This document shows positions 398 through 27,812 of a DNA stretch of 64,000 nucleotides, one piece after another. This DNA is from a virus, in the IMG/VR virus record IMGVR_UViG_3300031993_000003, one strand, 5' to 3'. Position 1 is the first letter of the stretch. The number at the start of each line of letters is the position of its first letter. Made by a program: the position numbers and the translations under genes. The notes below the pieces were generated by a model that did no database searches, had not been told where the DNA came from, and saw only the letters and a list, made by a program, of their open reading frames with translations.

Positions 398-470
398 AGT
401 TGTCTCCTTTTGCTTCCGGTATCCTCCCGGAGATTGCCGGGAGGCATCCCCCGGAAGTACCCGGTGGGAC

Positions 471-920
471 TCAGTAAGATTCCTGGCCCCATCCCTGGTT
501 GGGGTCGTCGGTGGCGGGGGCTGCGTCCTCGTACCGGCGGGGGAACTCGGTAATCTTGAGGGGGTACTTCATGGTCTCGGAGGAGTTGTAGTTACCGTCC
601 ATGTACGGGGAGACCTTTGGGTCCACCGGGGTGTAGTAGAGTTCGATTGCGTTGCTCCTGGATTCCTGCTTGTCCTTGCCCTGTATTCCGTTCCAGATGG
701 CGAGTTCCTCGTAGGCGTCGTGGGGCTTGCCGTCCTTGTCGAAGAAGGTGCCGTACCCGTCGTAGTTGCCGTCTACCTGGAAGTAGCCCCCGCCGAACTC
801 CTTGGGGATGAGGAGGTAGGCCTTCGTTGTGAAGGTATTTTCCTTGAGGCCCACTGTGGAGGTTGCTTCCTCGATAAGGTCCCTGCCGGTGTCCGATGTT
901 CTCCATGAAAACTGTCCCAT
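471..920 (-). CDS. Hypothetical phage protein ([10 protein letters not shown]...)
   Basis: AAAGGAGA RBS before ATG 920, downstream of the repeat; the ORF track extends it upstream through the repeat. Confidence 0.8.
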
Positions 921-1217
921 GATGATGTCTCCTTTTGTTTGACCTTGATATATTTCCCGGTAGCTCCCGGGAGCATCCCCCGGGGAGACCCGGTGGGTAT
1001 GGGGAGGAAACCGGCGGAAGCGCCTGTTCCTGTCGTCGACGAACGCGGCGTAGGACTGGAAGCCCTGCTTGCGGGCCCACTCGTCCCTGGCGCTGTCGGA
1101 TGCCGGGACCTGCTGCTGTGACGCCCTGTACCTGCGGCGCATCTCCGCGCGGAGCACTCTTCTAGTTCTTGACATGTTTCGCCTTCTTCGGTGAACCATG
1201 CCTGAAATATAGCATAT

Positions 1218-1727
1218 TTAGGGATCGGAGAACTTGAACGTTTCCGTGACGACGCGCTCGATGATGCGGAAGTTCTCCGCGGGAACATTGCGTTCGGCGT
1301 AGCGGCTGACATACCGTTCGCGGAGCTCGTCCGCGTCCTTGCGGTCCTTGAACCAGCGCTGCGCCTCCCCGGCGTAGCATCCGCCGAAGTGCGGGAGGAC
1401 CTTCTTGGTCCCCATGTCGAACACGGCGTATTCGTGGCGGCTCGTGTCGGGCATCGGGCGTTCCGCGCTCTCGTTGTTGATCCATCCCGAGGCATCCTTA
1501 ATCGAGGACACGTAAGGGATAAACTTGACGCCGGAAACCGGGAGGTCCCTGTCGGCGATTTCGATGAGGTAGAAGTGCTCGTCGTAGCTTCCGCCAATCC
1601 ATGCCGGAAGCGGGATTGCGAAGCGCTCGCCCTTCTTGATGTCGCTTTCCTGGTAAATCTTAAGGCCGGCGATCTGGTTCGCTCCGACCATGCGCTGTCT
1701 GATTTTGGCTATTTCTTCGCTTGGCAT
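1218..1727 (-). CDS. Hypothetical protein
   Basis: GGAGA RBS, start MPSEEIAK, overlaps end of the upstream gene. Confidence 0.7.
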   Translation of the reverse strand: MPSEEIAKIRQRMVGANQIAGLKIYQESDIKKGERFAIPLPAWIGGSYDEHFYLIEIADRDLPVSGVKFIPYVSSIKDASGWINNESAERPMPDTSRHEYAVFDMGTKKVLPHFGGCYAGEAQRWFKDRKDADELRERYVSRYAERNVPAENFRIIERVVTETFKFSDP

Positions 1728-2065
1728 GTGCCGTTCTCCATTACAAAGGTTTCCATCGTGCACTTTTCCTGCTTGATGTCGACGTGGATGAAATGCTCTC
1801 CGGGCTGGACAAGGTTCATCGCCGCGCGGCATGCCGTCCTGAGCTGGCCGACGATGAGCCTGGCGGCATCGAGGGCTTTCCGGGAGGCATCGTCGGAGTT
1901 ACCGATTTCTGTCTTGAGGGCGGCTACCCAGTCGTCGAAGGAGCCGTATGCTTCTATTACGTCGTCGACGTATCCGTTGTAGCAGGCCTGGGCGATTCCG
2001 CCGTTGCAAATCTGGTAGTGGAGGTGGCCGAGCCAGTAGAGCGCGGTATGTTCTGTATTTTCCAT
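1709..2065 (-). CDS. DMP19/DUF4375-like acidic protein (possible DNA mimic)
   Basis: Motif YQICNGGIAQACYNGY resembles the QVxNGGxxQ motif of that family; RBS and repeat upstream. Confidence 0.5.
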   Translation of the reverse strand: MENTEHTALYWLGHLHYQICNGGIAQACYNGYVDDVIEAYGSFDDWVAALKTEIGNSDDASRKALDAARLIVGQLRTACRAAMNLVQPGEHFIHVDIKQEKCTMETFVMENGTCQAKK

Positions 2066-2189
2066 CTTGGTGTCTCCTGTGTATGTGTACCGTATATTTC
2101 CCGGTGAGTGCCCGGGAGCATCCCCCGGGGAGACCCGGTGGGTATGGGGAGGAAACCGGCGGAAGCGCCTGTCGTATTTCTTGGGACAA

Positions 2190-2223
2190 ACGAAAGAAGC
2201 CTCCCGGTAGATTCCGGGAGGCC
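2190..2223 (-). terminator. Intrinsic terminator built on CCGG-N6-CCGG
   Basis: Minus strand GCCTCCCGG-aatcta-CCGGGAGGC-TTCTTTCGTTT; same design at about 5417, 7493, 12151, 13969, 16638, 17348, 21453, 21925, 22576, 23521, 24529, 24995. Confidence 0.85.
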
Positions 2224-2242
2224 ACTGGGAGACAACAAAAGA

Positions 2243-3325
2243 TTAAATATTTTTCTTGATTTCGTCGATTTCTGCCTGGATTACCTTGACAAGTCCTTCC
2301 AGTTTCTTCACGCGTTCTTCCAGGGACTTGTCCTTGGTGGGTTCCTGGGTTTCCTCGGTAGTTTCCTGGAAGTGACGGTTATCGTCCAGGGATTCGATGG
2401 TTTCCCGGAGGGATTCGGGGGTGACCTTGGCTACGTCGACGTTGACGCCGGACCGGGTTGACCATAGGTTGAGGTACTCGGTTTTTTCGGCGGGGCGGGA
2501 AACGAAGTCTACATGGAACTCGGTACCCTTGTATAAGAACCACGCTTCAATCCACTGGCAGTCCTCGTCGCCGTCTGCGGCGATTTCGGACATGGTGGCC
2601 TCCGGCAGGTACGACCTGAAGAACAGGCTGGCGGTAATCTTGAGCTGCTCGGCGGTCTTCGCCGGAATCTTCCGGGAGGTGTCCAGGGTATCGAGGGCCT
2701 TGAACATGGCCGTTACCGGGGTGACCTTGTTTTTTTCGACGAAATCGTCAAAATGTTTTTTAATTTCGTATTCGTCCGTTTCCTCGTAGACTTCGATGTC
2801 CGGTTCGGCGTCGCATGTGGGGACCTTCGGGTCGGCGAAGAACATGATGCGGGTATTTTCCCCGGCCCAGAAGAGGTATGCGGTGAACTTGGTTCCCCTG
2901 TAGGAGAGGGTGAACTCGCAATCCTTTTTGTCCTGTTCCTTCCCTATGGCTTCCGCGGTGGCACCGGGGAGGAGCTGGGGGAATAGGAGGATTGCGAAGT
3001 CGCGGGCTTCGCGGTAGGGGCGGTCTGTGTCGACGAGGGAGTTCCAGAGTTCGCGGCCGAGGGATTCCGGGTCATGGATGTCGAGGTCCACTACGAGGTC
3101 CAGGATGGAATCGTAGGCGTCCTGGGAGAATGTGTTGAATACGACGTGGCCGCCGACCTGGAATGCGCCGGATTCTCCCAGTTCCACGGTGGAGGGGGAG
3201 TTGACCCACTTTGACTTGCGGATTTCCTCTACCGCCTTGGAGGCGAGGTATTCGGACTCGAGTCGTATGATGCCGGATAAGTCGGCTTGTGAATGCTTCT
3301 GAAAGGCTATTTCGGTGTACTTCAT
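2243..3325 (-). CDS. Hypothetical acidic protein with internal duplication and C-terminal coiled coil
   Basis: AAGGAGA RBS, start MKYTEIAF; LLPGAT..YRGTKF and YLPEAT..YKGTEF internal repeat. Confidence 0.8.
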   Translation of the reverse strand: MKYTEIAFQKHSQADLSGIIRLESEYLASKAVEEIRKSKWVNSPSTVELGESGAFQVGGHVVFNTFSQDAYDSILDLVVDLDIHDPESLGRELWNSLVDTDRPYREARDFAILLFPQLLPGATAEAIGKEQDKKDCEFTLSYRGTKFTAYLFWAGENTRIMFFADPKVPTCDAEPDIEVYEETDEYEIKKHFDDFVEKNKVTPVTAMFKALDTLDTSRKIPAKTAEQLKITASLFFRSYLPEATMSEIAADGDEDCQWIEAWFLYKGTEFHVDFVSRPAEKTEYLNLWSTRSGVNVDVAKVTPESLRETIESLDDNRHFQETTEETQEPTKDKSLEERVKKLEGLVKVIQAEIDEIKKNI

Positions 3326-3400
3326 GGTGTTGTCTCCTTGTTTGAATACGGTATGCCTCCCGGGGATTGCGGGAGGCATCCCCCGGTGGTACCCGGTGGG

Positions 3401-3712
3401 CTACAGTGTCTTAATGGTGTCAGCGAAGGCGTTGCGACCTTCTGGGGTGAGAACGTCGTACTTCACGAAGAGTTCGTATAGGGCGAATAGGAAGTCCTTG
3501 TTTAGCGTACCGTACCGGACGCCCTTTGCGATGTTCGCTTGGTTGAAGTCCTCGTAGGAGTGCACCAGGGTTTCCCGGTCAATCTTGTAGGCGGCAGTAG
3601 ACTTTCTGCGGTTTGGCCGGTTCGTCTGTTTCCAGAACCAGTCCTTGCATGCGGTGTCGTTGAGGCGTACCAGTGCGGTCCACTGGAAGTCCGAGAGCTT
3701 AATCTTTGCCAT
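3401..3712 (-). CDS. Hypothetical protein
   Basis: ORF with GGGAGA RBS, within operon. Confidence 0.75.
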   Translation of the reverse strand: MAKIKLSDFQWTALVRLNDTACKDWFWKQTNRPNRRKSTAAYKIDRETLVHSYEDFNQANIAKGVRYGTLNKDFLFALYELFVKYDVLTPEGRNAFADTIKTL

Positions 3713-3731
3713 GGTGGGTTCTCCCGGTGGT

Positions 3732-4007
3732 TTACTGGTAGAATTCGAGTTCCTCGATGTGGAAGACCTCGGACTCGGATTCTCCGTCCTCGACCCATGC
3801 GATGGTCACCCACTTGACGCCGGAGTTTACGGCCTCGGCCACCGCCTCTACACTGGCAGGCTCCGGGGAGTCACCGAAGGTGGCACCGGGATGCAGGCAG
3901 ATGATGGTGGCCACCTCGTCGCAGAGGGTCTGGAGGACGTTTCCTTCCAGTTCGTCGTCGACTGCCATGATGGAGTTGTCGTGGATAAGTAAAAATTTTT
4001 TAAGCAT
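3732..4007 (-). CDS. Hypothetical acidic protein
   Basis: AAGGAGA RBS, start MLKKFLL. Confidence 0.75.
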   Translation of the reverse strand: MLKKFLLIHDNSIMAVDDELEGNVLQTLCDEVATIICLHPGATFGDSPEPASVEAVAEAVNSGVKWVTIAWVEDGESESEVFHIEELEFYQ

Positions 4008-4188
4008 CGTTTGTCTCCTTTGCGCTGAACGTGCGCTTGGCAAGGTGGGGGCGGCCGTCGTCCCCGATTACCGGGTAGACGACCTGTTTGCCGCCCGTGA
4101 CGAACTTTGTGAAGATGTCGGACTTCTGGTAGCCCTGGGAAACGAGTTCCTCGATGAACTTGTTGGCGAGTTCGGTGTATTCGGCCAT
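4000..4188 (-). CDS. Hypothetical protein
   Basis: Coupled to neighbours (TAATG overlap). Confidence 0.7.
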   Translation of the reverse strand: MAEYTELANKFIEELVSQGYQKSDIFTKFVTGGKQVVYPVIGDDGRPHLAKRTFSAKETNDA

Positions 4189-4391
4189 TATTCTTCCCCC
4201 TCGATGTTGATGGTGAGCACGTCGGAATTTTTCTCGATGCAGTCGATGGAGTAGATTTCCTCATAGAGGAGTTCCTGGGGGATTTCGTCGGCGGTGCCGG
4301 TGAAGACGACCTCGTCCTTTGAGAGGGAGTAGAGGTCGACTTTCTGGAAGGAAGGGTCTACGAGGGTGTCTACGAGTTCGTCTATGGTCAT
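4188..4391 (-). CDS. Hypothetical acidic protein
   Basis: AAAGGAGA RBS after repeat, start MTIDEL. Confidence 0.8.
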   Translation of the reverse strand: MTIDELVDTLVDPSFQKVDLYSLSKDEVVFTGTADEIPQELLYEEIYSIDCIEKNSDVLTINIEGEE

Positions 4392-4468
4392 TGGTTGTCT
4401 CCTTTTGTTTGAAAATTGTATTCCTCCCGGTAGCACCCGGGAGCATCCCCCGGGGCTACCGGTGGATA

Positions 4469-4792: not shown

Positions 4793-4868
4793 TGTGCTGT
4801 CTCCTTTCGGTTAAAAAAATATGCCTACCGGTAGCACCCGGGAGCATCCCCCGGGGGCTCCCGGTAGG

Positions 4869-5465: not shown

Positions 5466-6653
5466 TTAAAGTGGTTTGCTGCAGAGGGGGCAGAACTTCC
5501 ACTCGAAGCAACCGGCGTAGTGTCCTTCCTTGTATACGTTCACCTCCCGGGTATTCCCTGCACGCTGGACGTGGAGGGATTCGGAGCCGAAGTCCATTTC
5601 CTTGCCGGAGCAGAAGGGACATTCCGGTTCCTCCGGGGTGTCTTCCGGGGGTACGATGCAGTTCTCGAGGTGCTGTTTGAGTTGTTCGTAGGTGAAGCCG
5701 CCGCCGAAAAGTCCTTCGCCCTTGCCGGTTGCCCTGAAGTAAAATTTATTTTCCCTGCACTTGATGGTCAGCGGGATGCCCCGGTAGGTACCCTTCCATT
5801 CGATTGTCCCGTCGAGGTCGACCGACTGGGACGTTGCTTTGAACTCCGGGATGGTCTCGCCGTACTTGGATTCGGCGTAGAAGTCGAATTTAAAATAAAA
5901 ATTTACAACTTCTTCCCTCGCGTTATACGGGTCCTTGATGCAGAGCTCGTCGTCCGGCCGGTTTTCCGGCCAGATGAACATGAAGTCCTCGCGGTCCTTG
6001 TCGGTAACCTTGTAGGTCCTCTTGAACCGGCAAATGAATTTTTCCCCGGCGAAGGTAAACGGGAGGTCGAGCATGCTGACCTGGGCGCCGTCGAAGTGCA
6101 TTTCGTGGTTCCCGTCAGCGACCTTGGCTTCCGGGATGCTTCTGAGGAGTACGTCGCGTGCCATGTTCTCGGCGACTGCCGGGGGAACCATGTTGTCCAT
6201 CATTTCCTTGAACGGGTCGTATTCCGGGTCGTCGTCGTCGTCGTCGTTGGTGTAGACCACGTCGACGTTCCTGCGGTCGTAGCCGTTCTTCTCGAGGAGG
6301 TTCAGCACGTAGAGCGCGATTGCCTGCTCGGCCTCGGTGGGCATCTCCTTGCACCCGGTGGCCTCGACGGATTCCGTCAGTGCCACGATGGTGCCGTGGG
6401 ACTTGGAGTAGGCGACGTATGCCCCTGCTCCGGTATTCGGCCAGATGCAGTGGTACTTGGCGCGGAACGCCTTGAACCATTCGATGGGGGCGTCGTATTC
6501 GTCCGCGTAGTTATCCCTGGGCATGGCGAAGGCCAGGTCGCCGTACTGGGCGGGGACCAGGTCGAGGTTCTCGAGGTATTCCACCACCCCGCAGATGTCC
6601 GGGTGGTTCTTGATTGCGAGGACGGAAAGGGTCAGCTTCTTGTTGTTCTTCAT
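5466..6653 (-). CDS. Hypothetical multi-domain protein with C-terminal CPFC...CPLC zinc ribbon
   Basis: AGGAGA RBS, start MKNNKK; two CxxC pairs at the C-terminus. Confidence 0.8.
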   Translation of the reverse strand: MKNNKKLTLSVLAIKNHPDICGVVEYLENLDLVPAQYGDLAFAMPRDNYADEYDAPIEWFKAFRAKYHCIWPNTGAGAYVAYSKSHGTIVALTESVEATGCKEMPTEAEQAIALYVLNLLEKNGYDRRNVDVVYTNDDDDDDPEYDPFKEMMDNMVPPAVAENMARDVLLRSIPEAKVADGNHEMHFDGAQVSMLDLPFTFAGEKFICRFKRTYKVTDKDREDFMFIWPENRPDDELCIKDPYNAREEVVNFYFKFDFYAESKYGETIPEFKATSQSVDLDGTIEWKGTYRGIPLTIKCRENKFYFRATGKGEGLFGGGFTYEQLKQHLENCIVPPEDTPEEPECPFCSGKEMDFGSESLHVQRAGNTREVNVYKEGHYAGCFEWKFCPLCSKPL

Positions 6654-7538: not shown

Positions 7539-8222
7539 TTAACCTATTGACTTGGCATACTGGTATTTTTCCAGTACGCAGTTCTCGATGTGTTCGCGGA
7601 GCTGTCGCGTAATGGGGAAGAACATGGAGCGAAGGTCGTCGTCCTTGCTGTTGACGTGGGGATAGGCGACGAACAGGCCGTTCACCCCGTCCACAATCTT
7701 CAGGTCGCGGAGGATGAGCTGGTCGTTCAGCACCACTGTCGCTATTCCTACCGTATGGCCTTCCGGCTTGGTGAAGGGGAATACCTGCACCTGGGTCACC
7801 GCGAGGCAGTCGAAGTAGTTGGACTTCTCGCGGTCTTCCGGTTGCAACCGGGAGGCGCCGGTGAGCTTGTCTAAGAGGGCTCCCATTTCTCCCTTCATGT
7901 ACTCCTTGTCCTCGATGAGCTCCTTCAGGTCGGGAGCGCCGTTCTTGCCGTGTCCCTCGGAGTCAACCCAGGGCATGGCCTCGGCTACGGGGTCGTAGCA
8001 GTCGATGTAGTCCTGGAGCTCACCGGCGATTTCCTTGACGGTGGGCTTCCCGGAGATTACGAGGGCGGCGATGAAGTCCTCCCCGGCGGGGGAAGAAGTC
8101 TCGAACTCGACGACGGTTTCTGCGCGGTCTCCGTTCTGGCTGACGCTCGCGCTCCATTCGGTGTCCTTGATGATTTCTTCCAGTTTCTCCTGGGTCTTTT
8201 CGTAGTAAGATTTGCGTGCCAT
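7539..8222 (-). CDS. spoVG: SpoVG-domain fusion protein (unknown N-terminal domain)
   Basis: C-terminus VTQVQVFPF...ATVVLNDQLILRDLKIVDGVNGLFVAYP...FPITRQLREHIENCVLEKY is SpoVG-like. Confidence 0.8.
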   Translation of the reverse strand: MARKSYYEKTQEKLEEIIKDTEWSASVSQNGDRAETVVEFETSSPAGEDFIAALVISGKPTVKEIAGELQDYIDCYDPVAEAMPWVDSEGHGKNGAPDLKELIEDKEYMKGEMGALLDKLTGASRLQPEDREKSNYFDCLAVTQVQVFPFTKPEGHTVGIATVVLNDQLILRDLKIVDGVNGLFVAYPHVNSKDDDLRSMFFPITRQLREHIENCVLEKYQYAKSIG

Positions 8223-8306: not shown

Positions 8307-8633
8307 TCAGCCGTCTACCTCAACGTTGACTATGAAGGCGTTGCCGTCGTGGTCGCACAGTTGCCATTCGCCAAGGAAATCGTCCTCCACGTCGCTATGC
8401 GATACCTCGGAGTAGGTTCCCTCCGCGTTGCGCTTGAACAGCACGGCCTCCGTCCAGCAGGGCTCCTCGTCACCGCAGCCGACGATTTTCATGTCCACCA
8501 GGTACAGGTCGTCGAGGAACGACGCGGTTTCCCCGTCCGAGGCCATGTCGTCCATGAGTCCGGGTTCGGAAAGCGCACGCTTGATGAAGTCGGCGCGTTC
8601 CTTGGAAATCTTTATTGTCTTGTAGTAGTCCAT
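8307..8633 (-). CDS. Hypothetical acidic protein
   Basis: Single-gene cassette. Confidence 0.8.
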   Translation of the reverse strand: MDYYKTIKISKERADFIKRALSEPGLMDDMASDGETASFLDDLYLVDMKIVGCGDEEPCWTEAVLFKRNAEGTYSEVSHSDVEDDFLGEWQLCDHDGNAFIVNVEVDG

Positions 8634-8706
8634 AGTTGTCTCCTTGTTGTATAAGAATTATCCTCCCGGGAGCTCCCGGGAGCATCCCCCGGACGTTCCC
8701 GGTGGG

Positions 8707-9060
8707 CTAAAAGTCCTTGCCCGGGCGGGGCTGGTAGACGTTCAGCTTCTTGACTTCGACCGGGAACCCCTTGCCGTCCATGTCGTCGTGCCAGTCTGCG
8801 CGGTACTGCTCGAGCATGTACTTGACGTGCTCCGGGTCGCACCGGTCGGTTCCAGGGCGGGTGTGGGCATAGTAGTCGTAGCCGGACTCGTTGTAGTAGT
8901 GGCTGTTGCCGGATTCTGTGCAGACACACTCGACCCAGCTCTTGTGGCACGCCTGCGAGCAGTTCCAGAAAAAAATAATCGGGAACCAGCACTTCTGGTA
9001 CTTGTTGTATTCCTGCCGGAGAACAAATACGTTCTCCCAGTTCTTGACTTGTCTAGCCAT
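8707..9060 (-). CDS. Hypothetical protein
   Basis: AAGGAGA RBS. Confidence 0.75.
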   Translation of the reverse strand: MARQVKNWENVFVLRQEYNKYQKCWFPIIFFWNCSQACHKSWVECVCTESGNSHYYNESGYDYYAHTRPGTDRCDPEHVKYMLEQYRADWHDDMDGKGFPVEVKKLNVYQPRPGKDF

Positions 9061-9195
9061 AGTTGTCTCCTTGATTTAAATATTTGGCTATATTCAGCCA
9101 AAGTGTTGCTGGGTTGTTAGCTGTTAATGAAAATGTTAATAAAATTTAACTAAACATACTTAAATATGCTAATGGAAATAATGTATATTTAGTTA

Positions 9196-9402
9196 TGCCT
9201 AGTTTGATATGCCGACCGTGTTAAGGCTCTTCAGTAATGAAGTAGGACTAGGCAAGTCAGCCGTATTGCTTGATGCATATTAGGTATATCGCGTAGATAC
9301 GGTTGATTAAGTGCCGTTACGGCCTACCCAGTGATGGGCAAGGTAGGAAATCACATAGGTCTATCTCTTGGTAGATTTAGGTAGGTTTCAGTTAACGGTT
9401 AA
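9196..9402 (+). ncRNA. Putative structured ncRNA (~205 nt), family unassigned
   Basis: ORF-free; TATATT at 9184-9189; stems 9196-9203/9247-9254 and 9255-9266/9297-9308; GNRA-capped hairpins; G-U pairs favour the + strand. Confidence 0.55.
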
Positions 9403-9404
9403 GA

Positions 9405-9755
9405 CTAGAGGTCGATGTATTCCAGTTCGAAGTCGATGATGCGGCTACCATTGGGGCTATCGACAAAGATGTTGTAGACATGCGTCCAAAACCATCGGCA
9501 TTGGCGCTTAATCATGTAGCGCAGTTTGCGGTTGTCCTGGGGGCCATTGTAGTCCATGGCGACATTGCCGGAAATGCTCGGCTTGCCCTCATACCAGGTG
9601 TGATTAAGGGAAACCTTGCACCCGGGGTGCTTGCTGATTTCCTTGCATACATAGTCGATTAAAAGTTTTTTCTCGCTATCCTCAGTGTAGCGCGAGGGGC
9701 CGAACTTGAAAATCGGTTCCCTGTTGTGGCGCAGTATCCATAGGGTCACAGCCAT
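9405..9755 (-). CDS. Hypothetical protein
   Basis: ORF with AGGGGG RBS. Confidence 0.7.
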   Translation of the reverse strand: MAVTLWILRHNREPIFKFGPSRYTEDSEKKLLIDYVCKEISKHPGCKVSLNHTWYEGKPSISGNVAMDYNGPQDNRKLRYMIKRQCRWFWTHVYNIFVDSPNGSRIIDFELEYIDL

Positions 9756-9766
9756 GTCTTACCCCC

Positions 9767-10162
9767 TTATCCGAAAGTCACTTCGCCAAAGATGGCGCAG
9801 TCGATGAAGGCGCAGTCGGTGTGCATGTCGGGGGAGTCGAGGTACTGCCTGAGGATTTCGGTCTCCTTGGTGAAGATGACATCGACGGCGCGTTCGAGGT
9901 GCTCGATGGTGAGGTCATGCTTGTCGCCTTCCGGGTCGGTGACAGTGAGGGTCATGCCGCGTTGGAGCATTTCGGCATAGATGTCCTCCACGCACGGGCC
10001 ATAGGGGTCCTGCCAGTTCTCGGCGAGGGATTTCTTTACCGCATTGAACTGGTCGGTGTCGCCGTCAATCCAGTATTCGGAGCCGGTAAACGCGCCCGAT
10101 ATGATGTAGGTGAGCTTGTAGTCAGCCAGTTTCAGGAAGGCTTCGAGGTTGATGATAGTCAT
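9767..10162 (-). CDS. Hypothetical acidic protein ending AIFGEVTFG
   Basis: AAGGAGA RBS after repeat; D..DC.FIDCAIFGEVTFG terminus is reminiscent of Ocr-like acidic phage proteins (weak). Confidence 0.75.
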   Translation of the reverse strand: MTIINLEAFLKLADYKLTYIISGAFTGSEYWIDGDTDQFNAVKKSLAENWQDPYGPCVEDIYAEMLQRGMTLTVTDPEGDKHDLTIEHLERAVDVIFTKETEILRQYLDSPDMHTDCAFIDCAIFGEVTFG

Positions 10163-10382
10163 GGTGTTGTCTCCTTGTTTGAATCTAGTATACCTCCCGG
10201 TATTACCCGGGAGCATCCCCCATCCGTACCCGGTGGGTTACCGGGAAGCCTCCGGAAGCACGCCGCCCGGGAACCCGGACATCAAAAAAAGAGTTGGCCC
10301 CCGGACGCACCGGGGGCCAACTGGTGGCTGCTATGGAATTAAGTTGCGGTTGCTACCACGGTGGGTTGGCTTTCTCCTTCTG

Positions 10383-10541
10383 TTACAGACCATCTTCCTC
10401 TCGGCTTCGAATCCACTGGAAAAAAGATTTTTTGCAGTCGCCGCATATGATGTTCTCGGAACCGCCCACCTTGAGTATAAGGAACTTGGCGTATTCCCCC
10501 GAAGTATCAAACTCCTGACGGCAGAAAGGGCACGTCCTCAT
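10383..10541 (-). CDS. Small zinc-ribbon protein (52 aa)
   Basis: MRTCPFCRQEF...ICGDCKK; ATGA overlap with the upstream gene. Confidence 0.65.
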   Translation of the reverse strand: MRTCPFCRQEFDTSGEYAKFLILKVGGSENIICGDCKKSFFQWIRSREEDGL

Positions 10542-10918
10542 TGCCAGTCCTCCCCGTAGAGCCTGCGGAGTTCCCCGAGGGTATTCTTCAGGGGTTCCAC
10601 GGAGGTATCACGCTCGATGTACATACCGAACGGGAGTTTCAGGTCGAACAGTTCCTTCAGGCTGATGTCCCCGAGTTCCAGCCCGTAGCCCAGCGTGGAG
10701 GCAGAGAACACAATCATGTTCTCCTCGACGTGGTCGGCATCCTTGTGTTCCGGGTCGGTGAAGAACATGGAGTCCTCCAGCACGTACCAGGTTCCGCGTC
10801 CGCACGGGTTGAAGTAGCGGGCGATGACCTTCTTCTCGTCCTTCGGCGTCCCGTCGGTGGAGCCGTAGGGGGTCTTGGCCAGCGCGCTGATTATTTCCTG
10901 GGTGATTCTCTTCTGCAT
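10538..10918 (-). CDS. DUF2958-family protein
   Basis: IARYFNPCGRGTWYVLE...GLELGDISLKEL...IERD motif. Confidence 0.75.
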   Translation of the reverse strand: MQKRITQEIISALAKTPYGSTDGTPKDEKKVIARYFNPCGRGTWYVLEDSMFFTDPEHKDADHVEENMIVFSASTLGYGLELGDISLKELFDLKLPFGMYIERDTSVEPLKNTLGELRRLYGEDWQ

Positions 10919-11092
10919 TGTTGTCTCCTTGTTGTATAAGAATTATCCTCCCGGGCGCTACCGGGAGCATCCCCCGGACATTCCCGGTGGGTTCCCGGCA
11001 ATTTTCCTGTGACCGGTCAGCCGGCCGCTTCAGGTACAAAAAGAGCTGGCCCCCGGGACATCCGGGAGCCAGCCGTTGGCTGCTATGGAGGT

Positions 11093-12351: not shown

Positions 12352-12353
12352 GT

Positions 12354-12805: not shown

Positions 12806-13036
12806 TTAATCCAGAACCTCGTCAATCTGGTCGCCGTAGCACCAGTGGCCATTGTCGAGTTCGAGCACGGAACATTCACGGTTGTCAAAATCTATGAAGG
12901 CGACCTCGGTTCCATACTTGGAGTGCGGTTCCTCGGTTTCCTCGATGCCTTCCACCTTGGCTTCCTTCGGTTCCTCGCTCCCCCAAGCGCCCCGCCACAT
13001 CACGCGGCTGCCTAGCTTGATTACCTTGTCGCTCAT
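12806..13036 (-). CDS. Hypothetical protein (SH3-like)
   Basis: GGAGG RBS, MSDKVIKLGSRVMWRGAWG...GHWCYGDQI. Confidence 0.7.
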   Translation of the reverse strand: MSDKVIKLGSRVMWRGAWGSEEPKEAKVEGIEETEEPHSKYGTEVAFIDFDNRECSVLELDNGHWCYGDQIDEVLD

Positions 13037-13841: not shown

Positions 13842-14013
13842 GTCAGCCTCCTTGATATGGTATTGGTATTCCTCCCGGGGGGTTCCGGGAGCATCCCCCG
13901 GAGCTCCCCGGTGGGTTACCGGGAGATGACCGGCGGAGGCATGTCGGATTCCCGGAGGGATAAAGGAAGCCTCCCGGAAGATACCGGGAGGCTACCGGGA
14001 GGTTGCTATGTAG

Positions 14014-16512
14014 TTACTTGCGGAGGAAGCCGAGTTCATAGACCTGCGGGAGCATCTTGTCCTTGAGGGTCTTGAAGTCGGCCTTAAGGGTGGCGAACTC
14101 CTTCGGGCAGGCTTCCTCGAACAGTCCCTTCAACTGTCTCCAGCCACAGTCCCACCTCTGAACCTGGAGTTCCGGGTGGGCCTTGGCATAGGCCGGGCGG
14201 GCACTGGCGGATGCCTTGAGGCAGGCCTTGAAGTCGTCAAGTACCTTCTGCCCTTCCGGGGTCAGGTCGGTCAGTTTGTCGGCGATAAAGCGCTTGGCAT
14301 CCTTCGAGTTCTCCTTCCACTGGAGTCCGAGGAGTTGATAGGTTTCCTTCTTGGTGAAGGGGTAGAATTGATTGAGAAATTCGTATGCGTCCCCGTCTAC
14401 CTCGCCCTTGATGGAGGTCTGGTTGGACTTGGCCTCGAACATGGAAAACACAAAGCAATCTTTTTGCCATTCGGAGTATTTGGGATTGGCAGTGTCCGGC
14501 GCCATGTAACAGTCCTGGTGGTTCCACACTTCATCTACTACGAGTCGTCGGGCGGCGAAGCCGGATACTGCGCGGTCGAAGTTCTCCGGGAGGAGGTTGA
14601 AACAGTTTCCTCGGCTAAATGGGATTGAGAATAACCCAACAAATTGTGCATTCGCCTCAACACAATTACTGGAAAGAACTGCACAGCCAAGTGAACCGGC
14701 ACACCACCGTCCTCTAGCGGTCCCATCGGCATCCGTTTTAATTTTGATGCCATCGGTTGTGTTGATGGAAGAGACGGTTTTTGGTAAAGGGCCTTTTACC
14801 CAATCAGACATTTTTTCTTGACCGTCCAGATTGTAGTAAGTATGCGTTCCAATGCAGACCAGGTCTTGACCATCTTGGTTTTCCATCAGGTCAACCGGAA
14901 ATTCAGTCTGGAGCGGTTTTGAAGATTTTTTCCCGGTAGGCTTCTCCATATTCCATACTGAGAAGTTAATTGCCCAACCCGGTTTCACCCCGGAAAATTC
15001 TTCCGACGGGAAAGCGAAGGAATTATTGAAGGTGAATACATCGAGCCATTCCTTGCGGAACTTCTCGCAGGCATCTCCCGTAATCCACGAGGGTGACGAG
15101 AACAGACCGACGGTAACGTTAGTAAGTTTAAATTCTTTTACAATCTCCATCATTCGGTACAAAAATTGTACAGTAAGTTCGTTCGCGGCCTTTCCCAGTC
15201 CCTTTTCCATCATGCGGGATTTGACTGCTGTTTTTGAAGATTCTTTCTTGGAATCACCACCCTTGTTTGCACCTTCACCTGTCCCGCTGTACGGAGGATT
15301 TTGGATAAAAACAATTTTTTTATCTTTGTTTGCCTTGAGGGCTTCTACCAGGGTCTTCGGGAGGGTTGCGATGTCGCAATTCAAGAAGTCCCAGACGAAG
15401 GTTTCCTTTGCCTCGGTGGAGAGGGAATCGGAGCACTTCAATTCATTCGGGTCGATGGTGGAAAGAAAAAGATTTCCGAACTCATAATCGCGGGTGAGAC
15501 TTTTCGTTCCACAAGAGCCGTCCCATACGAGGCAGGATTCTTCCCAGTCCTGACCGGCAACGCGGGCGATGCGACGGTGTGCCTCGTCAACCCACAACTT
15601 ACCAGTGAAGAACTGCCCTCCCCTTCTACGTTCAGCCTCGCTAACTAGGGTATCGTAGAGGCGTTCGAGTTCGCGGTGGTCGTTCTCGGTGAAGGCACCG
15701 AAGCGGGCCTTGAACTGCCTTGCCTTGACTTCGTCCACGGCGACCGGGGCGTACCCGTCCACACCCATCAACTTTCCGTTCATGATGATGGCATCGTCCT
15801 GGCTCTTGAGGTAGCCGTAGAAGCGGCCAACGACCTCGTTAGCGGACATCCCTTCGGTGGATTTCAAAATTTTTGTCGAGAAGTAGTCGAATCCCTTCTT
15901 CAGGGTGGCGGCCGTAATCGGGACGATACGGGCAATGCCGTTCGCCATCGCGTCGATGGCATCAAAAATTTTTTCCGGGTCGAAATCCGGGTCGTCGATG
16001 TGGTACACGATGGACTGCTCCTGCACGGCGGCATCCTTGACGAGGGCTTCCAGCAGTTTAGCGTTCTTCCACTGCTCGCTCGGGGCGAGTTTCTCGTCCA
16101 CCATGTTCACGTACTGGTTCACGTAGTTGATATGGAGAGCCCAGCACTCGTTGCGGTCGGCCACGAAGATGACATCCGGGGTGCGGAGGTTGGTCTTGCC
16201 GTTGAGGAAGCGGGTGTAGTACTGGATGGCCTGGGCGAGCACCTTCGCGCGCACCGTGGCATCCTGCATGTCCACGTCGGCCTTGAACTCGATGAGCAGG
16301 GCCTTCTTGTCGATGCTCACGTAGGCGTCGCAGTGCTTGTAGCGGGTGATGGACACCTTCTTCCAGTGCTTCTCGATGGCCGGGAGCCACACCAGGGCCA
16401 CCTGGCTCTCCTGGTCGGAGGACTTCGGGTCGATTGCGCGGAGCTTTGCCTCGAATTCCTTGGCCTTTGCGGACTTGGTGTAGGTTGCGGTGTTGAGTGT
16501 TCTTGTAGTCAT
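14014..16512 (-). CDS. Type IIG-like fused restriction endonuclease / N6-adenine methyltransferase
   Basis: N-terminal CD-x-LLIEFK (PD-D/ExK-like); GQFFT, VWDGSCGT (motif I) and QNPPY (motif IV); 832 aa. Confidence 0.75.
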   Translation of the reverse strand: MTTRTLNTATYTKSAKAKEFEAKLRAIDPKSSDQESQVALVWLPAIEKHWKKVSITRYKHCDAYVSIDKKALLIEFKADVDMQDATVRAKVLAQAIQYYTRFLNGKTNLRTPDVIFVADRNECWALHINYVNQYVNMVDEKLAPSEQWKNAKLLEALVKDAAVQEQSIVYHIDDPDFDPEKIFDAIDAMANGIARIVPITAATLKKGFDYFSTKILKSTEGMSANEVVGRFYGYLKSQDDAIIMNGKLMGVDGYAPVAVDEVKARQFKARFGAFTENDHRELERLYDTLVSEAERRRGGQFFTGKLWVDEAHRRIARVAGQDWEESCLVWDGSCGTKSLTRDYEFGNLFLSTIDPNELKCSDSLSTEAKETFVWDFLNCDIATLPKTLVEALKANKDKKIVFIQNPPYSGTGEGANKGGDSKKESSKTAVKSRMMEKGLGKAANELTVQFLYRMMEIVKEFKLTNVTVGLFSSPSWITGDACEKFRKEWLDVFTFNNSFAFPSEEFSGVKPGWAINFSVWNMEKPTGKKSSKPLQTEFPVDLMENQDGQDLVCIGTHTYYNLDGQEKMSDWVKGPLPKTVSSINTTDGIKIKTDADGTARGRWCAGSLGCAVLSSNCVEANAQFVGLFSIPFSRGNCFNLLPENFDRAVSGFAARRLVVDEVWNHQDCYMAPDTANPKYSEWQKDCFVFSMFEAKSNQTSIKGEVDGDAYEFLNQFYPFTKKETYQLLGLQWKENSKDAKRFIADKLTDLTPEGQKVLDDFKACLKASASARPAYAKAHPELQVQRWDCGWRQLKGLFEEACPKEFATLKADFKTLKDKMLPQVYELGFLRK

Positions 16513-18662: not shown

Positions 18663-18837
18663 GTCAGCCTCCTCTAGCTATTACAGGTATGTCTCCCGGC
18701 ATGCACCGGGAGCATCCCCCGGGAGTTCCCGGTGGATTCCGCAACAAAAAATTTCTCCGGATGGGTTCCAGGCAGGTACCGGGAGGACTATCCGTGGTAG
18801 CCGCCGGTGCGTCCCCAGTCGTGGTATACCATACGCA

Positions 18838-21220: not shown

Positions 21221-21249
21221 ATTATCGTTCAAGCTCGGCAGGGTGTAAA
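21221..21249 (-). promoter_or_regulatory. Sigma70-type promoter TTTACA-17-GATAAT
   Basis: Exact 17-bp spacing; a second TTTACA box lies upstream at about 21324-21329. Confidence 0.75.
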
Positions 21250-21498
21250 GGACTTTTTTTTAATTTTTTTCCTCTAAGCTCTAACCGCCCTTCTACTCTA
21301 TATATCGCCTAGCGTAGCATATTTGTAAAGCGAAGTCAACCATATTTTTGTAAAGTTTGATTTACACGGAATGCATCCCCCGGAACTTCCCGGTAGGTAA
21401 CCGGGAGCAGCCCGCGTCTTCCGGTACCCTCCTGTCTGAAGCAAACGGGAAAGCCCCCGGTAACTGCCGGGGGCTTCCGTTGAGAGGTAGGTAAGTGT

Positions 21499-22452: not shown

Positions 22453-22621
22453 AGTGCTTACCTCTCTTTACATATATTATGTCTCCCGGAAGTCCCCGGG
22501 AGCATCCCCCGGGAACCCCCGGTAGATACCGTCCAATCCGGCTGCAACCGGTACCTTCAGTCCAGAAAAAAGAAAACCTCCCGGACAATTCCGGGAGGTT
22601 CCGCAGGGCAGGTAAAATGTC

Positions 22622-23002: not shown

Positions 23003-23101
23003 ATCTTACCTGCCTTTCCTTGCCGTGAAGCCCATTCCTCCCGGCTCAGTCCCTATACCTCCCGGTAAACCCACGGAGCATCCCCCGGAAGTCCCCGGTA
23101 G

Positions 23102-23398: not shown

Positions 23399-23565
23399 GA
23401 TTCACCTGCCTTTTACACCTATATCCTCCCGGTTCCTCCCGGGAGCATCCCCCGGGAAATCCCGGTAGATGCCGCAAAGTCCAGCTGCCTTCCAGGGCCA
23501 TGACTGAAGAAAAAAAGAAAACCTCCCGGGATTTTCCGGGAGGTTCCGCAGGGCAGGTAAAAATT

Positions 23566-24177
23566 CTATCGGTTGATGCTACTATCGAAGACGTACGGGT
23601 CAATCCGGCACATGCTTGTAACCCCGCACTTTCCCACCACTATGTGGTCAAGTACCGGAATCTTCATTATTTTACCGGCAGAGCAGAGCTCGCGGGTGAT
23701 TCCCCAGTCCTGCGTGCTCGGTTCCGTCGAGCCGCTCGGGTGGTTGTGTGCGACAATTATGCTCACCGCGTTGTCCAGCAGGGCGACACGGAACACCTCC
23801 CGGGGGGCGACCTGGGTCTGGTTCACCAGCCCCACCGTCACCTCGTGCGTCCCGATTACGTGGTTCACCGAGTCAAGGGTCAGCACCACGAAGCGCTCCT
23901 GCGTGGAGAACTTCAGCCCGCAGAGGTACGGCATCGCGTCGTCGGGGTTCACCACCTCCCTCGCCTGCGTGCCCACCACGTAGCGGGCGGAAAGCTCGCA
24001 ACAGGCGATTATCTTGTCCGCCGTGCTCCCGCCTACGCCGCGGAACCTCATCAGCTCATCGCGGCTCGGTATGGTGCTACGGCTCGCCAGGTAGTCAGTC
24101 ACCTGCCGGGCGAGCACCACGTCGCCCAACACTGCCCCGAAAAGCCTTTCTGTCTTCTGTGCGTTCTCGATATCCAT
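23566..24177 (-). CDS. radC: RadC family JAB/MPN domain protein
   Basis: HhH motif FRGVGGSTA; QERF...AHNHPSGSTEPSTQD...VLDHIVVG. Confidence 0.95.
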   Translation of the reverse strand: MDIENAQKTERLFGAVLGDVVLARQVTDYLASRSTIPSRDELMRFRGVGGSTADKIIACCELSARYVVGTQAREVVNPDDAMPYLCGLKFSTQERFVVLTLDSVNHVIGTHEVTVGLVNQTQVAPREVFRVALLDNAVSIIVAHNHPSGSTEPSTQDWGITRELCSAGKIMKIPVLDHIVVGKCGVTSMCRIDPYVFDSSINR

Positions 24178-24563
24178 AGTCTTACCTCTCTATACCCCTT
24201 ATACACCCCGGTACCTCCCGGGAGCATCCCCCGGAAGTCCCCGGTAGATTCCCCGGGAAGACACTGGCGCTGTCCTGGTACCGGTCCAGGAAAACATATG
24301 GAACCTTATCCGTGGTATCCGCCTATCCTGCCGAACCCGGCCTCAACCGTGTAGTGTCTCTTGGCAATGCCGCCCGCGTTCTTGTACATGTTCCACTCTC
24401 CTGTTTTTAAATTGTTCTCCCGGGCTATCCGGAAAGTCCATTCCCCGGTGCATCCCCCGGACGTTCCCGGTGCCTGCCGGGATATCCAGCTGCATCCTCC
24501 TGGACGCCAACTGCCAGGCATAAGGGAAACCTCCCGGAATTCTCCGGGAGGCTCCTTGGCAGG

Positions 24564-24863
24564 TCAAATGTCCGTCACCCTCGCGTACTCGGCGAGCACC
24601 TTTTCCTCCACGTACGCCTTCAGTGCTGCGTCCTCAGGCTTGACGACACTGCGGATGTCCTCCCCCCTGTAGAACGGGTCAAGGGGGTAACTCACGAAAA
24701 GACCGTCGGTCCCATCCATAACCCTGAGACCCCGTACCGTCAGCGAGCCGTTGAACGTCACTACGGCCAAAGCCTTGAGGTGACCAAGGTCTTCCTTGAA
24801 CGGGAACACGCGCACCTCGGTCAGTATGAGCCCGTTAACTCCTTCAAAAATGTTTTCTGCCAT
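24564..24863 (-). CDS. spoVG: SpoVG family protein
   Basis: LTEVRVFPF...LKALAVVTFNGSLTVRGLRVMDGTDGLFVSYP. Confidence 0.9.
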   Translation of the reverse strand: MAENIFEGVNGLILTEVRVFPFKEDLGHLKALAVVTFNGSLTVRGLRVMDGTDGLFVSYPLDPFYRGEDIRSVVKPEDAALKAYVEEKVLAEYARVTDI

Positions 24864-25044
24864 GCTATACCTGCCTTTTCCTTGTAATTTCCTTATCTTC
24901 CACAGAATATCCCGGGAGCATCCCCCGGAAGTCCCCGGTAGATACCGTCATCACCAGCTGCCAGACTCAGGGCCCGTACCGGGATGAACAGGTAAGCCCC
25001 CGGGTATTACCCGGGGGCTTCCGTCCTTCTCCTTCAATTTTCCC

Positions 25045-25320
25045 CTATTCCTCTTCAGTCTCCTCTTCTGTCTCCTCTTCAGTCTCCTCCTCGGTTTCCT
25101 CGTCATCCGGCCAGTCAGTAGGGGCATCCCACTTGATTACCGGGGTGAACACCGTCTTCACCACGCTCGCCACGAACACCGCGAGCACGACCCCCCATGC
25201 CACGCAGAGCTCTATCACGGAACCGATGTCCACCATCTTTCCCGTGGCGAACAGCACCGTCTCGGCAACTAGCGCCACCGTGAACGCCCCGAGAACTCCC
25301 ATTGTCAATACCTTGCGCAT
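25045..25320 (-). CDS. 2-TM membrane protein with acidic (EEET)n tail
   Basis: Two hydrophobic segments; paralog of 20588-20785. Confidence 0.8.
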   Translation of the reverse strand: MRKVLTMGVLGAFTVALVAETVLFATGKMVDIGSVIELCVAWGVVLAVFVASVVKTVFTPVIKWDAPTDWPDDEETEEETEEETEEETEEE

Positions 25321-25477
25321 ACCTTACCTGCCTTTCATTTCCACAAGCGATTCATTTCCCTTGCTTATACCCTATGCCTCCCGGAACCCCCCGGGAGCAT
25401 CCCCCGGAAGTCCCCGGTAGATACCTTACTCCCCACTGGCCCGCGGCCGGCGTCATCCAGGACAGGATACGGAAAAG

Positions 25478-25641
25478 CCCCCGGGAGCATCCCCCGGAAG
25501 TCCCCGGTAGATACCTAGATGTCCAGCTGCTTCCAGGGACCTGACGCGGGCCCGGGAACCTCCCGGAACCCCCCGGGAGCATCCCCCGGAAGTCCCCGGT
25601 AGATACCTAGATGTCCAGCTGCTTCCAGGGACCTGACGCGG
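25478..25641. repeat. Tandem ~71-bp duplication of repeat plus flank (empty cassettes)
   Basis: ccgggagcatcccccggaagtccccggtagatacctagatgtccagctgcttccagggacctgacgcgg at about 25481 and 25573. Confidence 0.9.
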
Positions 25642-25656
25642 CAACCGGTCCTATAT

Positions 25657-25714
25657 AAAAAAAAAGAAGGGAGCGGAACACTGTCCGCTCCCCGAACCTT
25701 TAACGAAAGGAGAT
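25657..25714 (-). ncRNA. Putative ~58-nt sRNA with 5' anti-Shine-Dalgarno sequence
   Basis: TTGACA(25749-25744)-17-TATATT(25726-25721), then AUCUCCUUUCGUUAAAGG, hairpin GGGAGCGGA/TCCGCTCCC and a U tract; no ORF. Confidence 0.65.
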
Positions 25715-25996
25715 ATCCATAATATAGCAAATATCTTCATCTTTGTCAAGTCAAAAAGCGGAAGTTTTTATTATACTGCTCGCCTGTGCACCATATTAAA
25801 AACTTATCCGTGATATCCGCCGACCCGAATAAATCCGTTTTCCCAGCTGAATCCCTTCATATTTAACTCCTTTTTTTAAGTTCTCCCCGCCTATCCGGTA
25901 ACCCAACCTCCCGGAGCATCCCCCGGATGTCCCCGGTAGCTCCCGGCAATTCCCCGCATGCAGCAGGAAGGGGGCCGTCGCCGACCCCCTCAGTCC

Positions 25997-26287
25997 CTAC
26001 GAGACGCTGTCCTCGAACAGTCCCTGGTGCCGCGTCGTGGTCATGGACCACTTCCCGAGATGCTTCACCCTGCCGCCGATGCACACCGAGACCACCGTCC
26101 TGTAGCTAACGCAGCACCATGCCCCGTTCGCCCTGTCGTACACCTTCCAGCAAGGAGTGCCCCTCTTCAGACGCTCCGGAGTCCCCCACTCGGGTTCCTT
26201 CGGGTTGTCCAAGGCCGCCATGTACGCCCCGTATTCACTCGGGCCGAATTCCACGCTCCTGCCCTCGCCCATGCAATACCATGTCAT
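25997..26287 (-). CDS. Hypothetical protein, paralog of 23102-23398
   Basis: Shared C-terminal motif. Confidence 0.8.
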   Translation of the reverse strand: MTWYCMGEGRSVEFGPSEYGAYMAALDNPKEPEWGTPERLKRGTPCWKVYDRANGAWCCVSYRTVVSVCIGGRVKHLGKWSMTTTRHQGLFEDSVS

Positions 26288-26449
26288 ATCTTACCTGCCT
26301 TTCCTTGTCAAGCGCTTCATTGCCCCTTGACATACTCCCTATACCTCCAGGAACCCCCCGGGAGCATCCCCCGGATATTCCCGGTAGATACCGGAGCAGG
26401 CCCCCGGGATTCCCCGGGAGCCCGCCTGGCAGGCACTATGCAAATCCCC

Positions 26450-26782
26450 CTACTTCCACGCGATGTCCTCCATGAGCCCGTCGAGCAGCTCCGCCACGTA
26501 CTTCTCCACGTCCTCGGCGGGTACCTTCGCAACGTCAAGCAGGCGCAACCCGCTGGACGCAACCACGCGCCCGTCCGAAGACAGCTCCATGTACGCCTTC
26601 TTGCCACCCTTGTAGAACTCCATGCTACGGCCAGTCGCCGACATGGACGTTATCACCGCAACGTCCCCGCTACGCACGCACGAGATGTTCTCCTCGCCCG
26701 CGAACTCCTCGCACACCGGCAACTCCGCCGACATCGCCATCGCCGCAAGGCCGAGACCCGCAATCACCGCTATGTTCCTCAT
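26450..26782 (-). CDS. Secreted hypothetical protein
   Basis: Signal peptide MRNIAVIAGLGLAAMAMSA. Confidence 0.75.
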   Translation of the reverse strand: MRNIAVIAGLGLAAMAMSAELPVCEEFAGEENISCVRSGDVAVITSMSATGRSMEFYKGGKKAYMELSSDGRVVASSGLRLLDVAKVPAEDVEKYVAELLDGLMEDIAWK

Positions 26783-27812
26783 GCCATACCTGCCTTTTCC
26801 TTCGTCGGCAAGACCATTCCCGCCGACATGCCACCTATGCCTCCCGGTTCCTCCCCGGTGCATCCCCCGGGAATCCCCGGTAGATTCCCCCGGACACCCA
26901 CTGGCGCCTCCAGGTTCCCTTCAGGCAGTTCCGCCTGCATTTACGGAGGAACCCTCCCGGGGGGTACCGGGAGGGTTCCTTGGACATCGGCCGCAAGACC
27001 TAATCGTCCTTGCCTGGCTCAGTCCAGCTGTCCTGCGGAACGAACGCAGAGTTCAGCATGACGAGAACCGCGAAGCCGAGCAACACCAATACGACGTACA
27101 TGACCCTACCTGCCTTTCCTTAGTCAGAGGGTGAATCCCCCTTGACATATGCACTATGCATCGGGACACCTCCCGCAGGCATCCCCCGGGAACCCCCGGT
27201 AGATACCGGGACATCCAGCTGCACGGGTCGACGCGGGCCCCTGACAGGGAAGGACTCCAGGAGGGAACCGGGAGCAGTCGGCGGTGGGCACCGGGAGCAG
27301 TCGGCGGTGGGCACCGGGAGCATCCCCCGGGAGGACCGGGTAGGCTCCGGGAGGTCACCCTGGTCCTGACCGGTACTGTGTCGTCTGGATAACCTGACCC
27401 TTAGGGGTTTACACCCCCCTTTATTTCACAAGTGCTCTACGCCGGTTCCTGGCCGGGAACTTTCGTTCCAGTTTCCTCCCGGTGCATGCTTGGTGGCAGC
27501 CAAGTGGCAGCCAGGGTACTCCCGGAGGCTCCCGGAGGCAGCCGGGTGGTGGACTTGGTGTCTCCCGGAGGCAGCCTGGCATGGGAATGGGTATCTCCCG
27601 GTGCATGCTTGGTCTCTCCCGGAGGCAATCTGTGGTTCCTCCCGGTACATGCCAGGTATATGCCTGGTATGCGGTGCATGCCTGGTGCAGTACTGGGTAG
27701 TACCGGGAGGAGGTGCATGGGAAATTAAAAGAATTTTTCTGGGTACGAAATATAAATTTTTGTTTACATAAAAGGCAATCGAATCGAATCGAATCGAGCA
27801 AGTTAGGGTACA

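Follow-up and report, generated by a model that had tools for sequence, protein, structure and literature searches.

T4-type phages (RB49/phi1, PST/T4, nt-1/KVP40) are known to carry about 50 promoter early stem-loop (PeSL) modules, in which a promoter, a stem-loop, and a Shine-Dalgarno (SD) sequence precede orphan genes (PMC2839356, PMC4122927). The stem often lies in the stretch that separates the −35 box from the −10 box, genes are gained and lost at the modules, and mini-circles have been demonstrated (PMC2839356, PMC4122927). Early, host-takeover modules within terminal repeats are described for SPO1 (PMC6873191), phage K (PMC11598898), and the jumbo phage PA5oct, which has a 39-kb direct repeat (PMC7318152). 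Dyads near genes occur in Cluster K mycobacteriophages, where extended start-associated sequences (ESAS) are lineage-variable paired inverted repeats tied to start-associated sequences (SAS; PMC3203893), and in Cluster O phages, which carry 17-bp dyads (PMC4351075). The Burkholderia jumbo phage Matilda displays doubled coverage over an 18 kb repeat, with small hypothetical genes near the genome end (bioRxiv 10.64898/2026.10.21.760668). Here we analyze a 64,000-nucleotide stretch of viral DNA (IMG/VR record IMGVR_UViG_3300031993_000003; hereafter, the window) in which 43 copies of a 37-bp element built on four CCGG tetranucleotides punctuate an array of some 47 open reading frames (ORFs). We put at about 60% the probability that this element is an early promoter module of a likely jumbo phage, situated in a likely long terminal repeat, with dyads predicted to bind a dimeric regulator and with the repeats serving as passive homology for the shuffling of gene units.

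A scan of the window for CCGG-N6-CCGG-N9-CCGG-N6-CCGG, allowing up to two mismatches, returned 53 matches where 0.14 were expected. Anchoring the search on the core yielded 44 plus-strand candidates; the one at 15052 is a chance match (11 mismatches, inside a gene) and was dropped. The 43 real copies span 428–27340, every one on the plus strand, and 21 of them are perfect, with all four CCGG and the ATGC core in a 10/13/10 register. Outside the array, the 64-kb window holds zero copies with the core and a single four-CCGG match with a different core, at 59579. The original prediction had described about 43 co-oriented four-CCGG repeats and given 8666/8676/8689/8699 as an example with 10/13/10 spacing; the array is confirmed and the example is exact. 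The copies, and the parts of that example, are as follows.

428, 957, 2102, 3360, 4427, 4828, 5325, 6687, 7388, 8257, 8666, 10197, 10951, 11306, 12047, 12672, 13389, 13875, 16545, 17208, 17963, 18421, plus strand: starts of the 43 array copies, first half
18696, 19209, 19714, 20438, 20860, 21357, 21836, 22486, 23062, 23429, 24208, 24434, 24902, 25381, 25471, 25563, 25900, 26348, 26844, 27163, 27304, plus strand: starts of the array copies, second half
8689..8702, minus strand: far arm A of the example, CCGG-N6-CCGG, the best conserved half, with a lineage-specific N6
8680..8688, minus strand: core of the example, GGGATGCTC, with ATGCTC at a −35-like distance
8663..8682, minus strand: near arm B of the example, with N6 flanked by a 7-bp inverted repeat, lying between the −35-like box and the −10-like box
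8634..8662, minus strand: −10-like box with its invariant ATA, AT-rich leader, and ribosome-binding site (RBS); the start codon is at 8633

Read in the direction of the genes, the module consists of A-CCGG-N6-CCGG, the core GGGATGCTC, CCGG-N6-CCGG, GAG, the ATA box, an AT-rich leader, the RBS, and the start codon. The core is an imperfect palindrome (GGG-ATG-CTC), which makes the whole element near-palindromic and readable as 14+9+14 or 15+7+15; it varies between copies and slips by one base. Arm B, near the gene, is much more variable than the far arm A (0.8–1.1 versus 0.1–0.2 mismatches). Conserved CCGGs around an asymmetric core had been proposed: the CCGG repeat stands, while the core proves imperfectly palindromic and arm B far less conserved. 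Nor do the N6 spacers vary freely, as had been stated, since they are biased by position across all 96 dyads in the array, with purines first and pyrimidines last. The intervals between copies (92–2670 bp) contain genes. CCGG density reaches 35.7 per kb between array genes versus 8.0 within them, and CCGG spacing peaks at 10, 20–23, 33, 43–44, and 54 bp, a phasing of about 10–11 bp that fades past about 55 bp. The array likely extends to the left of the window, as contigs hold more copies with flanks absent from it.

A promoter role for the repeat, also proposed originally, is supported by its fixed ATA box and its distances to start codons. Thirty-nine of the 43 copies head an ORF, all 39 carry ATA at a −10-like distance, and the four copies that head no ORF are without it. 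Among the copies with a listed start codon no more than 95 bp away, 37 of 37 have ATA at offset 24–26 from the A of the core, with 0–1 occurrences at offsets 18–23; two further ATA-bearing copies head mini-ORFs. Thirty copies lie 50–58 bp from the start codon, and ATA is present in 29 of the 33 copies in a related assembly described below. The 17–19 spacing from ATGCTC to ATA is that of −35 and −10 boxes, and the position upstream of −35 is occupied by the GC-rich arm A, with no AT-rich tract there. At the −35 position, ATGCTC matches two of the six sigma-70 consensus bases, and a sigma-70 scan is passed by one of the 43 copies (20457, 9 of 12). The same scan places two ordinary promoters in the array.

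25660..25749, minus strand: the array's top-scoring promoter of sigma-70 type (extended −10; 11 of 12), after which come about 55 nt that hold a terminator and no ORF
21221..21249, minus strand: second sigma-70-type promoter (10 of 12), before the gene whose element copy at 21357 is decayed

Judged from its sequence, the element is likely a promoter module with boxes unlike those of sigma-70. Because its −35 position and its final −10 base differ from the sigma-70 consensus, and the array also contains two ordinary sigma-70 promoters, the module likely depends on a factor made by the phage or carried in the virion. N4-type hairpin promoters and sporulation-type sigma boxes were also considered and fit poorly in spacing.

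The dyads could be read as DNA sites or as RNA stems. We found no pairing covariation within the arms and none between the two N6 (1.77 pairs versus 1.80 shuffled). The loop length is fixed at 6, and arm A, which has an A-G mismatch beside its 4-bp stem in 42 of 43 copies, is nevertheless the best conserved part of the element. Together, the absent covariation, the fixed loop length, and the conservation of arm A despite its mismatch favor recognition as duplex DNA, and a dimeric regulator is predicted to occupy the two CCGG-N6-CCGG dyads. The SpoVG family, the only nucleic-acid-binding family found in the array, provides a candidate reader of the element. A single long hairpin spanning the whole element was rejected for want of covariation between the two spacers. 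The 7-bp stem of arm B and an alternative central stem are predicted to form a G/C-rich stem-loop within the promoter, and the CCGG-N6-CCGG dyad also makes most terminator stems.

A metagenome scan returned 12 loci, of which eight are contigs of one assembly that carry array genes (25,212 bp in all); this relative is about 70% identical to the window and has the same element. Four loci (L004, L006, L007, and L016) are single matches without array genes and were excluded, and L005, with one copy, was used in profiles only. Homologues of 24 of the 47 array genes occur in the relative contigs, at 32–97% identity, and gene order is mostly kept. Three joins in the relative skip window units, their left and right flanks matching different window copies (two in L011, one in L009); the only well-resolved one, 8682/10213 in L011, has flank scores of 90 and 50. 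In addition, two genes are relocated (L003), a pentapeptide gene has another neighbor, one gene occurs in duplicate, and some ten genes that have no homologue in the window sit between copies. The gain, loss, and reordering of genes at the repeat that had been predicted are thus found in this relative. One site in the window may record a related event.

3721..3730, no strand assigned: apparently collapsed element relic, its left and right flanks meeting at a single CCGG; the genes on either side form separate units in the relative

The copies also display concerted evolution. Copies farther apart along the DNA differ more in spacer and flank (Mantel rho 0.24 and 0.37, p 0.0005, 40 copies), and the spacers of arm A are closer within than between genomes (3.2 and 3.1 versus 4.2, p 0.001). 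Among pairs of copies at the same gene, the relative's spacer is nearer to its own genome's copies than to the window copy in 11 of 15 for arm A and 7 of 15 for arm B. Among the joints listed for contigs of six metagenome runs there were no true variant joins or circles. A depth hole in run X1 (8665–10925) was rejected as an inter-copy deletion, about 70% of the run having been read and 0.99 of the words being present. Contig joints (15 shown of 25, and 8 in another comparison) were rejected as cross-matches with short sides of 21–52 letters; three of the 8 lie at repeats, carry the depth of one known contig (15.1), and were likewise rejected. Elsewhere, viral contigs gave zero matches to the exact element, and looser patterns 33 and 5 stretches with one site each (L049 has two core matches). 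Protein scans for relatives returned none, or distant loci without the element; four single matches in species genomes were treated as chance. No similar element occurs in 50,697 phage records, and a literature search, thin on subscription journals, found no description of this element or phage.

DNA of the window is present in bovine gut metagenome runs. Long contig pieces of run X2 have depths of 12.8–16.4 inside the array versus 6.0–7.1 beyond 27867 (four inside, four outside), and those of run X3 have 26.8–32.5 inside versus 12.8–14.9 outside (five inside, three outside), a ratio of 2.1 in both, with the proviso that contig depth is no measure of copy number. Such doubling suggests that the segment is a terminal repeat spanning 27 kb or more. 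The best-fitting and likely arrangement is a long terminal repeat that is read inward, and an inverted repeat can give the same depth signal. The array ends in a distinctive zone.

27297..28130, no strand assigned: boundary zone where the depth halves, with 23-bp and 98-bp repeats, CCGG-rich units, a G-rich tract, and a turn in GC skew; likely the terminal-repeat edge

The skew turns at 27 kb. At the depth step itself (27806–28038) lie the G-rich tract, which has quadruplex potential, and two 98-bp repeats containing a variant of the element with a shorter core. The phage origin assumed at the outset is supported by an 832-aa array protein, which has 78 listed homologues including itself. Homologues of its gene also occur on contigs of 379–381 kb. 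Because the longest contig carrying this protein measures 284,234 bp and its Atlas neighbors are mostly phage clusters, named adenine methyltransferases, we infer a jumbo phage of about 284 kb or more.

The element has counterparts at the other end of the transcription units; these shared dyads, the anti-RBS sequences next to them, and the doubled depth had escaped the original prediction. Totals of the terminator scan are not clearly above shuffles (25 versus 16.9; 17 versus 13.8), and only long minus-strand stems were used.

2198..2242, minus strand: example terminator module, one of 17 analyzed, with an anti-RBS trailer after the stop codon, a CCGG-N6-CCGG hairpin, and a U-rich tail
5439, 7514, 10322, 11074, 12177, 13993, 16662, 17374, 19833, 20568, 21478, 21951, 22602, 23547, 24551, 25018: approximate positions of the other terminator modules
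2224–2242, 13994–14013, 22603–22621: example trailers complementary to the regional RBS-leader style

In these 17 modules, the 28 bases preceding the stem agree with an array leader's reverse complement over a mean of 8.6 bases, compared with 6.1 (sd 0.2) for shuffled and 6.3 for same-strand controls. The style of the leaders shifts over the length of the array, with the trailer shifting accordingly in 12 of 17 modules; only three match the unit's own leader over at least 9 bases, and the leader of the upstream neighbor pairs equally well. The trailers, which the relative retains, may be relics of an inverted half-element or may act on RBSs. The ORF-less stretch of about 55 nt at 25660–25749 has an anti-SD 5′ part, which we take to resemble the 3′ end of 16S rRNA, and a terminator with a z of −6.0; it is a candidate gene for an anti-SD small RNA. 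Its pairing with 39 leaders (−11.1 versus −6.9 kcal/mol shuffled) has a weak control, in that any anti-SD pairs with any SD. The candidate was not found in the relative's partial contigs.

In the reading we prefer, that of an early promoter module with regulator-binding dyads, the duplicated segment would enter the cell first and be read inward from 27.3 kb. RNA polymerase would start about seven bases past the ATA box, and a phage-made or virion-carried activator or sigma factor at the dyads would switch all units together. The repeated sequence would act as passive homology, through which recombination adds, drops, and reorders gene units; exchange would proceed by relaxed-fidelity homologous recombination or gene conversion, mostly between neighbors and rarely.

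Several findings weigh against this reading. The window contains no capsid or terminase gene. Runs X2 and X3 belong to one sample, possibly the source of the window; in a second, shallow sample, near the detection floor, run X5 has a step (2.2 versus 0.9) and run X4 has none (2.2 versus 1.9), both sets of figures having been obtained by hand, for X4 from 17 and 10 bins, after exclusion of the bin at the boundary and of two others dominated by low-complexity repeats. The repeats of Matilda are inverted and flank flippable segments, so doubled coverage can arise without a direct repeat at the genome ends. At the promoter, the final T of the −10 box is present in 15 of 37 copies, and the ATA score permitted four spacer lengths. 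A sigma factor or DNA-binding protein, which the original prediction had suggested looking for in the rest of the genome, did not emerge in the window either: Pfam detects no helix-turn-helix protein or sigma factor among the 124 window proteins, and no regulator was found except the SpoVG candidates. Two of the three joins have weak right-side assignments (10967/12063, scores 48 and 34, runner-up 22; 20876/21852, scores 48 and 34, runner-up 28), and two changes, the loss of the gene at 12806 and the replacement of the gene at 4188, have a boundary that lacks a copy. As most genes adjoin a copy anyway, the gene changes support crossover inside the element only moderately. The relative, moreover, consists of eight short contigs, possibly from several strains and possibly misassembled, and one 70-bp identity between its copies could cause misjoining. 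For arm B, the spacers show no clear lineage specificity (p 0.07). The identical runs that copies share are short, with a median of 13 bp (at least 30 bp in 14 of 946 pairs), and because of this and the zero true variant joins, exchange is likely slow. Finally, the element is able to form a strong fold (about −26 kcal/mol); in 39 of 43 copies, variants at the core preserve a G-U or G-C pair on the mRNA strand; and two terminator-type hairpins keep their pairing without CCGG (20568; 25668–25693).

These last observations also count in favor of a plain PeSL arrangement, in which the host polymerase uses the element as an early promoter, its primary sigma factor accepts the boxes, and the dyads are only RNA or DNA stem-loops for attenuation, processing, or mRNA stability, with no dedicated protein. 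The 7-bp stem of arm B between the boxes is the commonest PeSL layout (PMC2839356), and the same stem forms terminators. Eleven units end 3–13 bases before arm A without a terminator, so that RNA runs through the element, and concerted evolution alone could fix CCGG and the length of N6. Such an arrangement nevertheless fits poorly with the high conservation of the mismatched arm A, with zero compensatory change in either genome, and with the failure of 42 of 43 copies to score as sigma-70 promoters when two canonical ones lie nearby; we consider it possible but doubtful. An elaboration of the preferred reading strikes us as unlikely: one phage protein reading the phased dyads would license about 40 non-sigma-70 promoters, bind the terminators and the genome end, and pair copies for exchange at a defined point, after which anti-RBS trailers and the anti-SD RNA would shut array translation.

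The CCGG units might, alternatively, mainly bind a structural protein with a role in coating, drawing in, packaging, or replicating the end of the genome, with promoter use secondary. Their density between array genes, their phased peaks, and the related units in the gene-free boundary zone where the GC skew turns would suit this role, which the strict link to the ATA box and start codon and the fading of the phase make very unlikely. Least likely of all is the phage-encoded, integron-like capture array of the original prediction, with the 37-mer as the site at which a phage site-specific recombinase excises and inserts cassettes. Integron attC sites have conserved core ends and a covarying single-strand hairpin, and their cassettes are promoterless; tyrosine-recombinase sites have inverted arms around an invariant spacer of 6–8 bp. 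The array does resemble integron arrays in being a repeat-delimited, co-oriented series of unrelated genes; the symmetric arms around a 7–9 bp center recall tyrosine-recombinase sites, the well-resolved join in L011 lies inside the element, and about 220 kb of genome lies beyond the window. Set against this, no integrase or other recombinase was detected among the 124 window proteins with Pfam or among 81 compared with PHROGs, the center varies and slips, arm B decays, and each unit brings its own promoter-like site. Instability would be expected of 43 direct copies, yet across many of them the contig pieces listed for the deeper runs keep the window's order; order is also largely collinear with the relative, the relic at 3721 is not a conservative product, and neither circles nor true variant joins appeared. 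The statement that the motif is neither attC nor a CRISPR repeat holds, as there are no attC ends and no covariation, the intervals are gene-sized, and Rfam gives no match.

All of the approximately 47 array ORFs lie on the minus strand. Five pass Pfam cut-offs and nine have a PHROG match, in keeping with the predicted cargo of mostly orphan genes. The exceptions include the following.

14014..16512, minus strand: the largest of the cargo genes, its 832-aa product predicted to resemble adenine DNA methyltransferases, with a conserved NPPY motif and the Atlas neighbors mentioned above; no match in PADLOC or PDB
24564..24863, minus strand: SpoVG-family gene (Pfam)
7539–8222, minus strand: second SpoVG gene, fused (Pfam)
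23566..24177, minus strand: RadC/JAB-domain cargo gene (Pfam, PHROG)

In the units nearest the end (25045–27101), leaders are longer, at about 80 bp, and bear 5′ hairpins; the products of several of these units are small and membrane-like. Mini-ORFs of 14–27 aa ending in GGYHG occur at 18788–18832, 24306–24389, and 25804–25860 on the minus strand, with one more in the relative (L012). A low-GC stretch at 9061–9400, before a gene without an element, reaches a depth of about 430 in run X1 and is high in four runs; it is likely a multi-copy sequence of other genomes and has no Rfam or plasmid match. At position 6227, runs X1 and X2 have three extra bases relative to the window in a run of acidic codons. 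GATC is nearly absent (observed/expected 0.05 in array genes and 0.0 beyond 28130), which suggests that the host restricts this sequence. Beyond the array lie a TnpB-like gene, HNH and homing endonuclease-like genes, and a second methyltransferase (47137–48438, 40608–42110, 49890–50870, 52582–53619), as well as at least 14 paralogous ORFs (33537–56129) that share only an N-terminal AxYxAIFLxFLRR motif and belong to no Pfam family. Small Gly-Ser-rich ORFs and a Fibrobacter-major-domain protein with a GS linker are located at 28500–30600 and 34683–35462, and this domain hints at Fibrobacter as the host.

Comparison with the described systems places the array close to several of them. Like the terminal-repeat early modules of SPO1, phage K, and PA5oct, it appears to combine a long duplicated end with small genes of unknown function in short units, many promoters and terminators, and a single direction. 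PA5oct has near-consensus sigma-70 boxes, unlike the element here (PMC7318152), and no repeated double-dyad site is described in the accessible text for these phages, whereas a direct repeat and early expression are here only proposed. Cluster K ESAS and Cluster O dyads share the many copies and the proposed role as protein-binding sites, in other sequences and other hosts, with no terminator sharing or shuffling reported in the accessible text. Common to PeSL cassettes are the stem-loop in the promoter, the SD and start codon at the 3′ end, the orphan genes, and gene gain and loss at the elements, and the original comparison with PeSL is borne out to that extent. The window contains no T4-type core genes. 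PeSL modules have sigma-70 consensus boxes, an AT-rich upstream tract, and stems varied in sequence and place; here ATGCTC occupies −35, a GC-rich dyad lies upstream, the geometry is fixed, and the copies form one block in the doubled segment. The element therefore works like PeSL but misses two of its defining features, the sigma-70 boxes and the AT-rich tract, and is not classed as PeSL. The general design is known and common, and the value of this locus lies in the regulator, for which the fixed double dyad is a direct bait, and in the RNA layer, where anti-RBS pairing, if true, would be a simple timer for early genes, rather than in the array itself. Best likened to PeSL rather than to an integron, the array would extend PeSL-type shuffling to an early region lying in a terminal repeat, in a lineage of uncultured rumen phages whose promoter does not resemble that of sigma-70.

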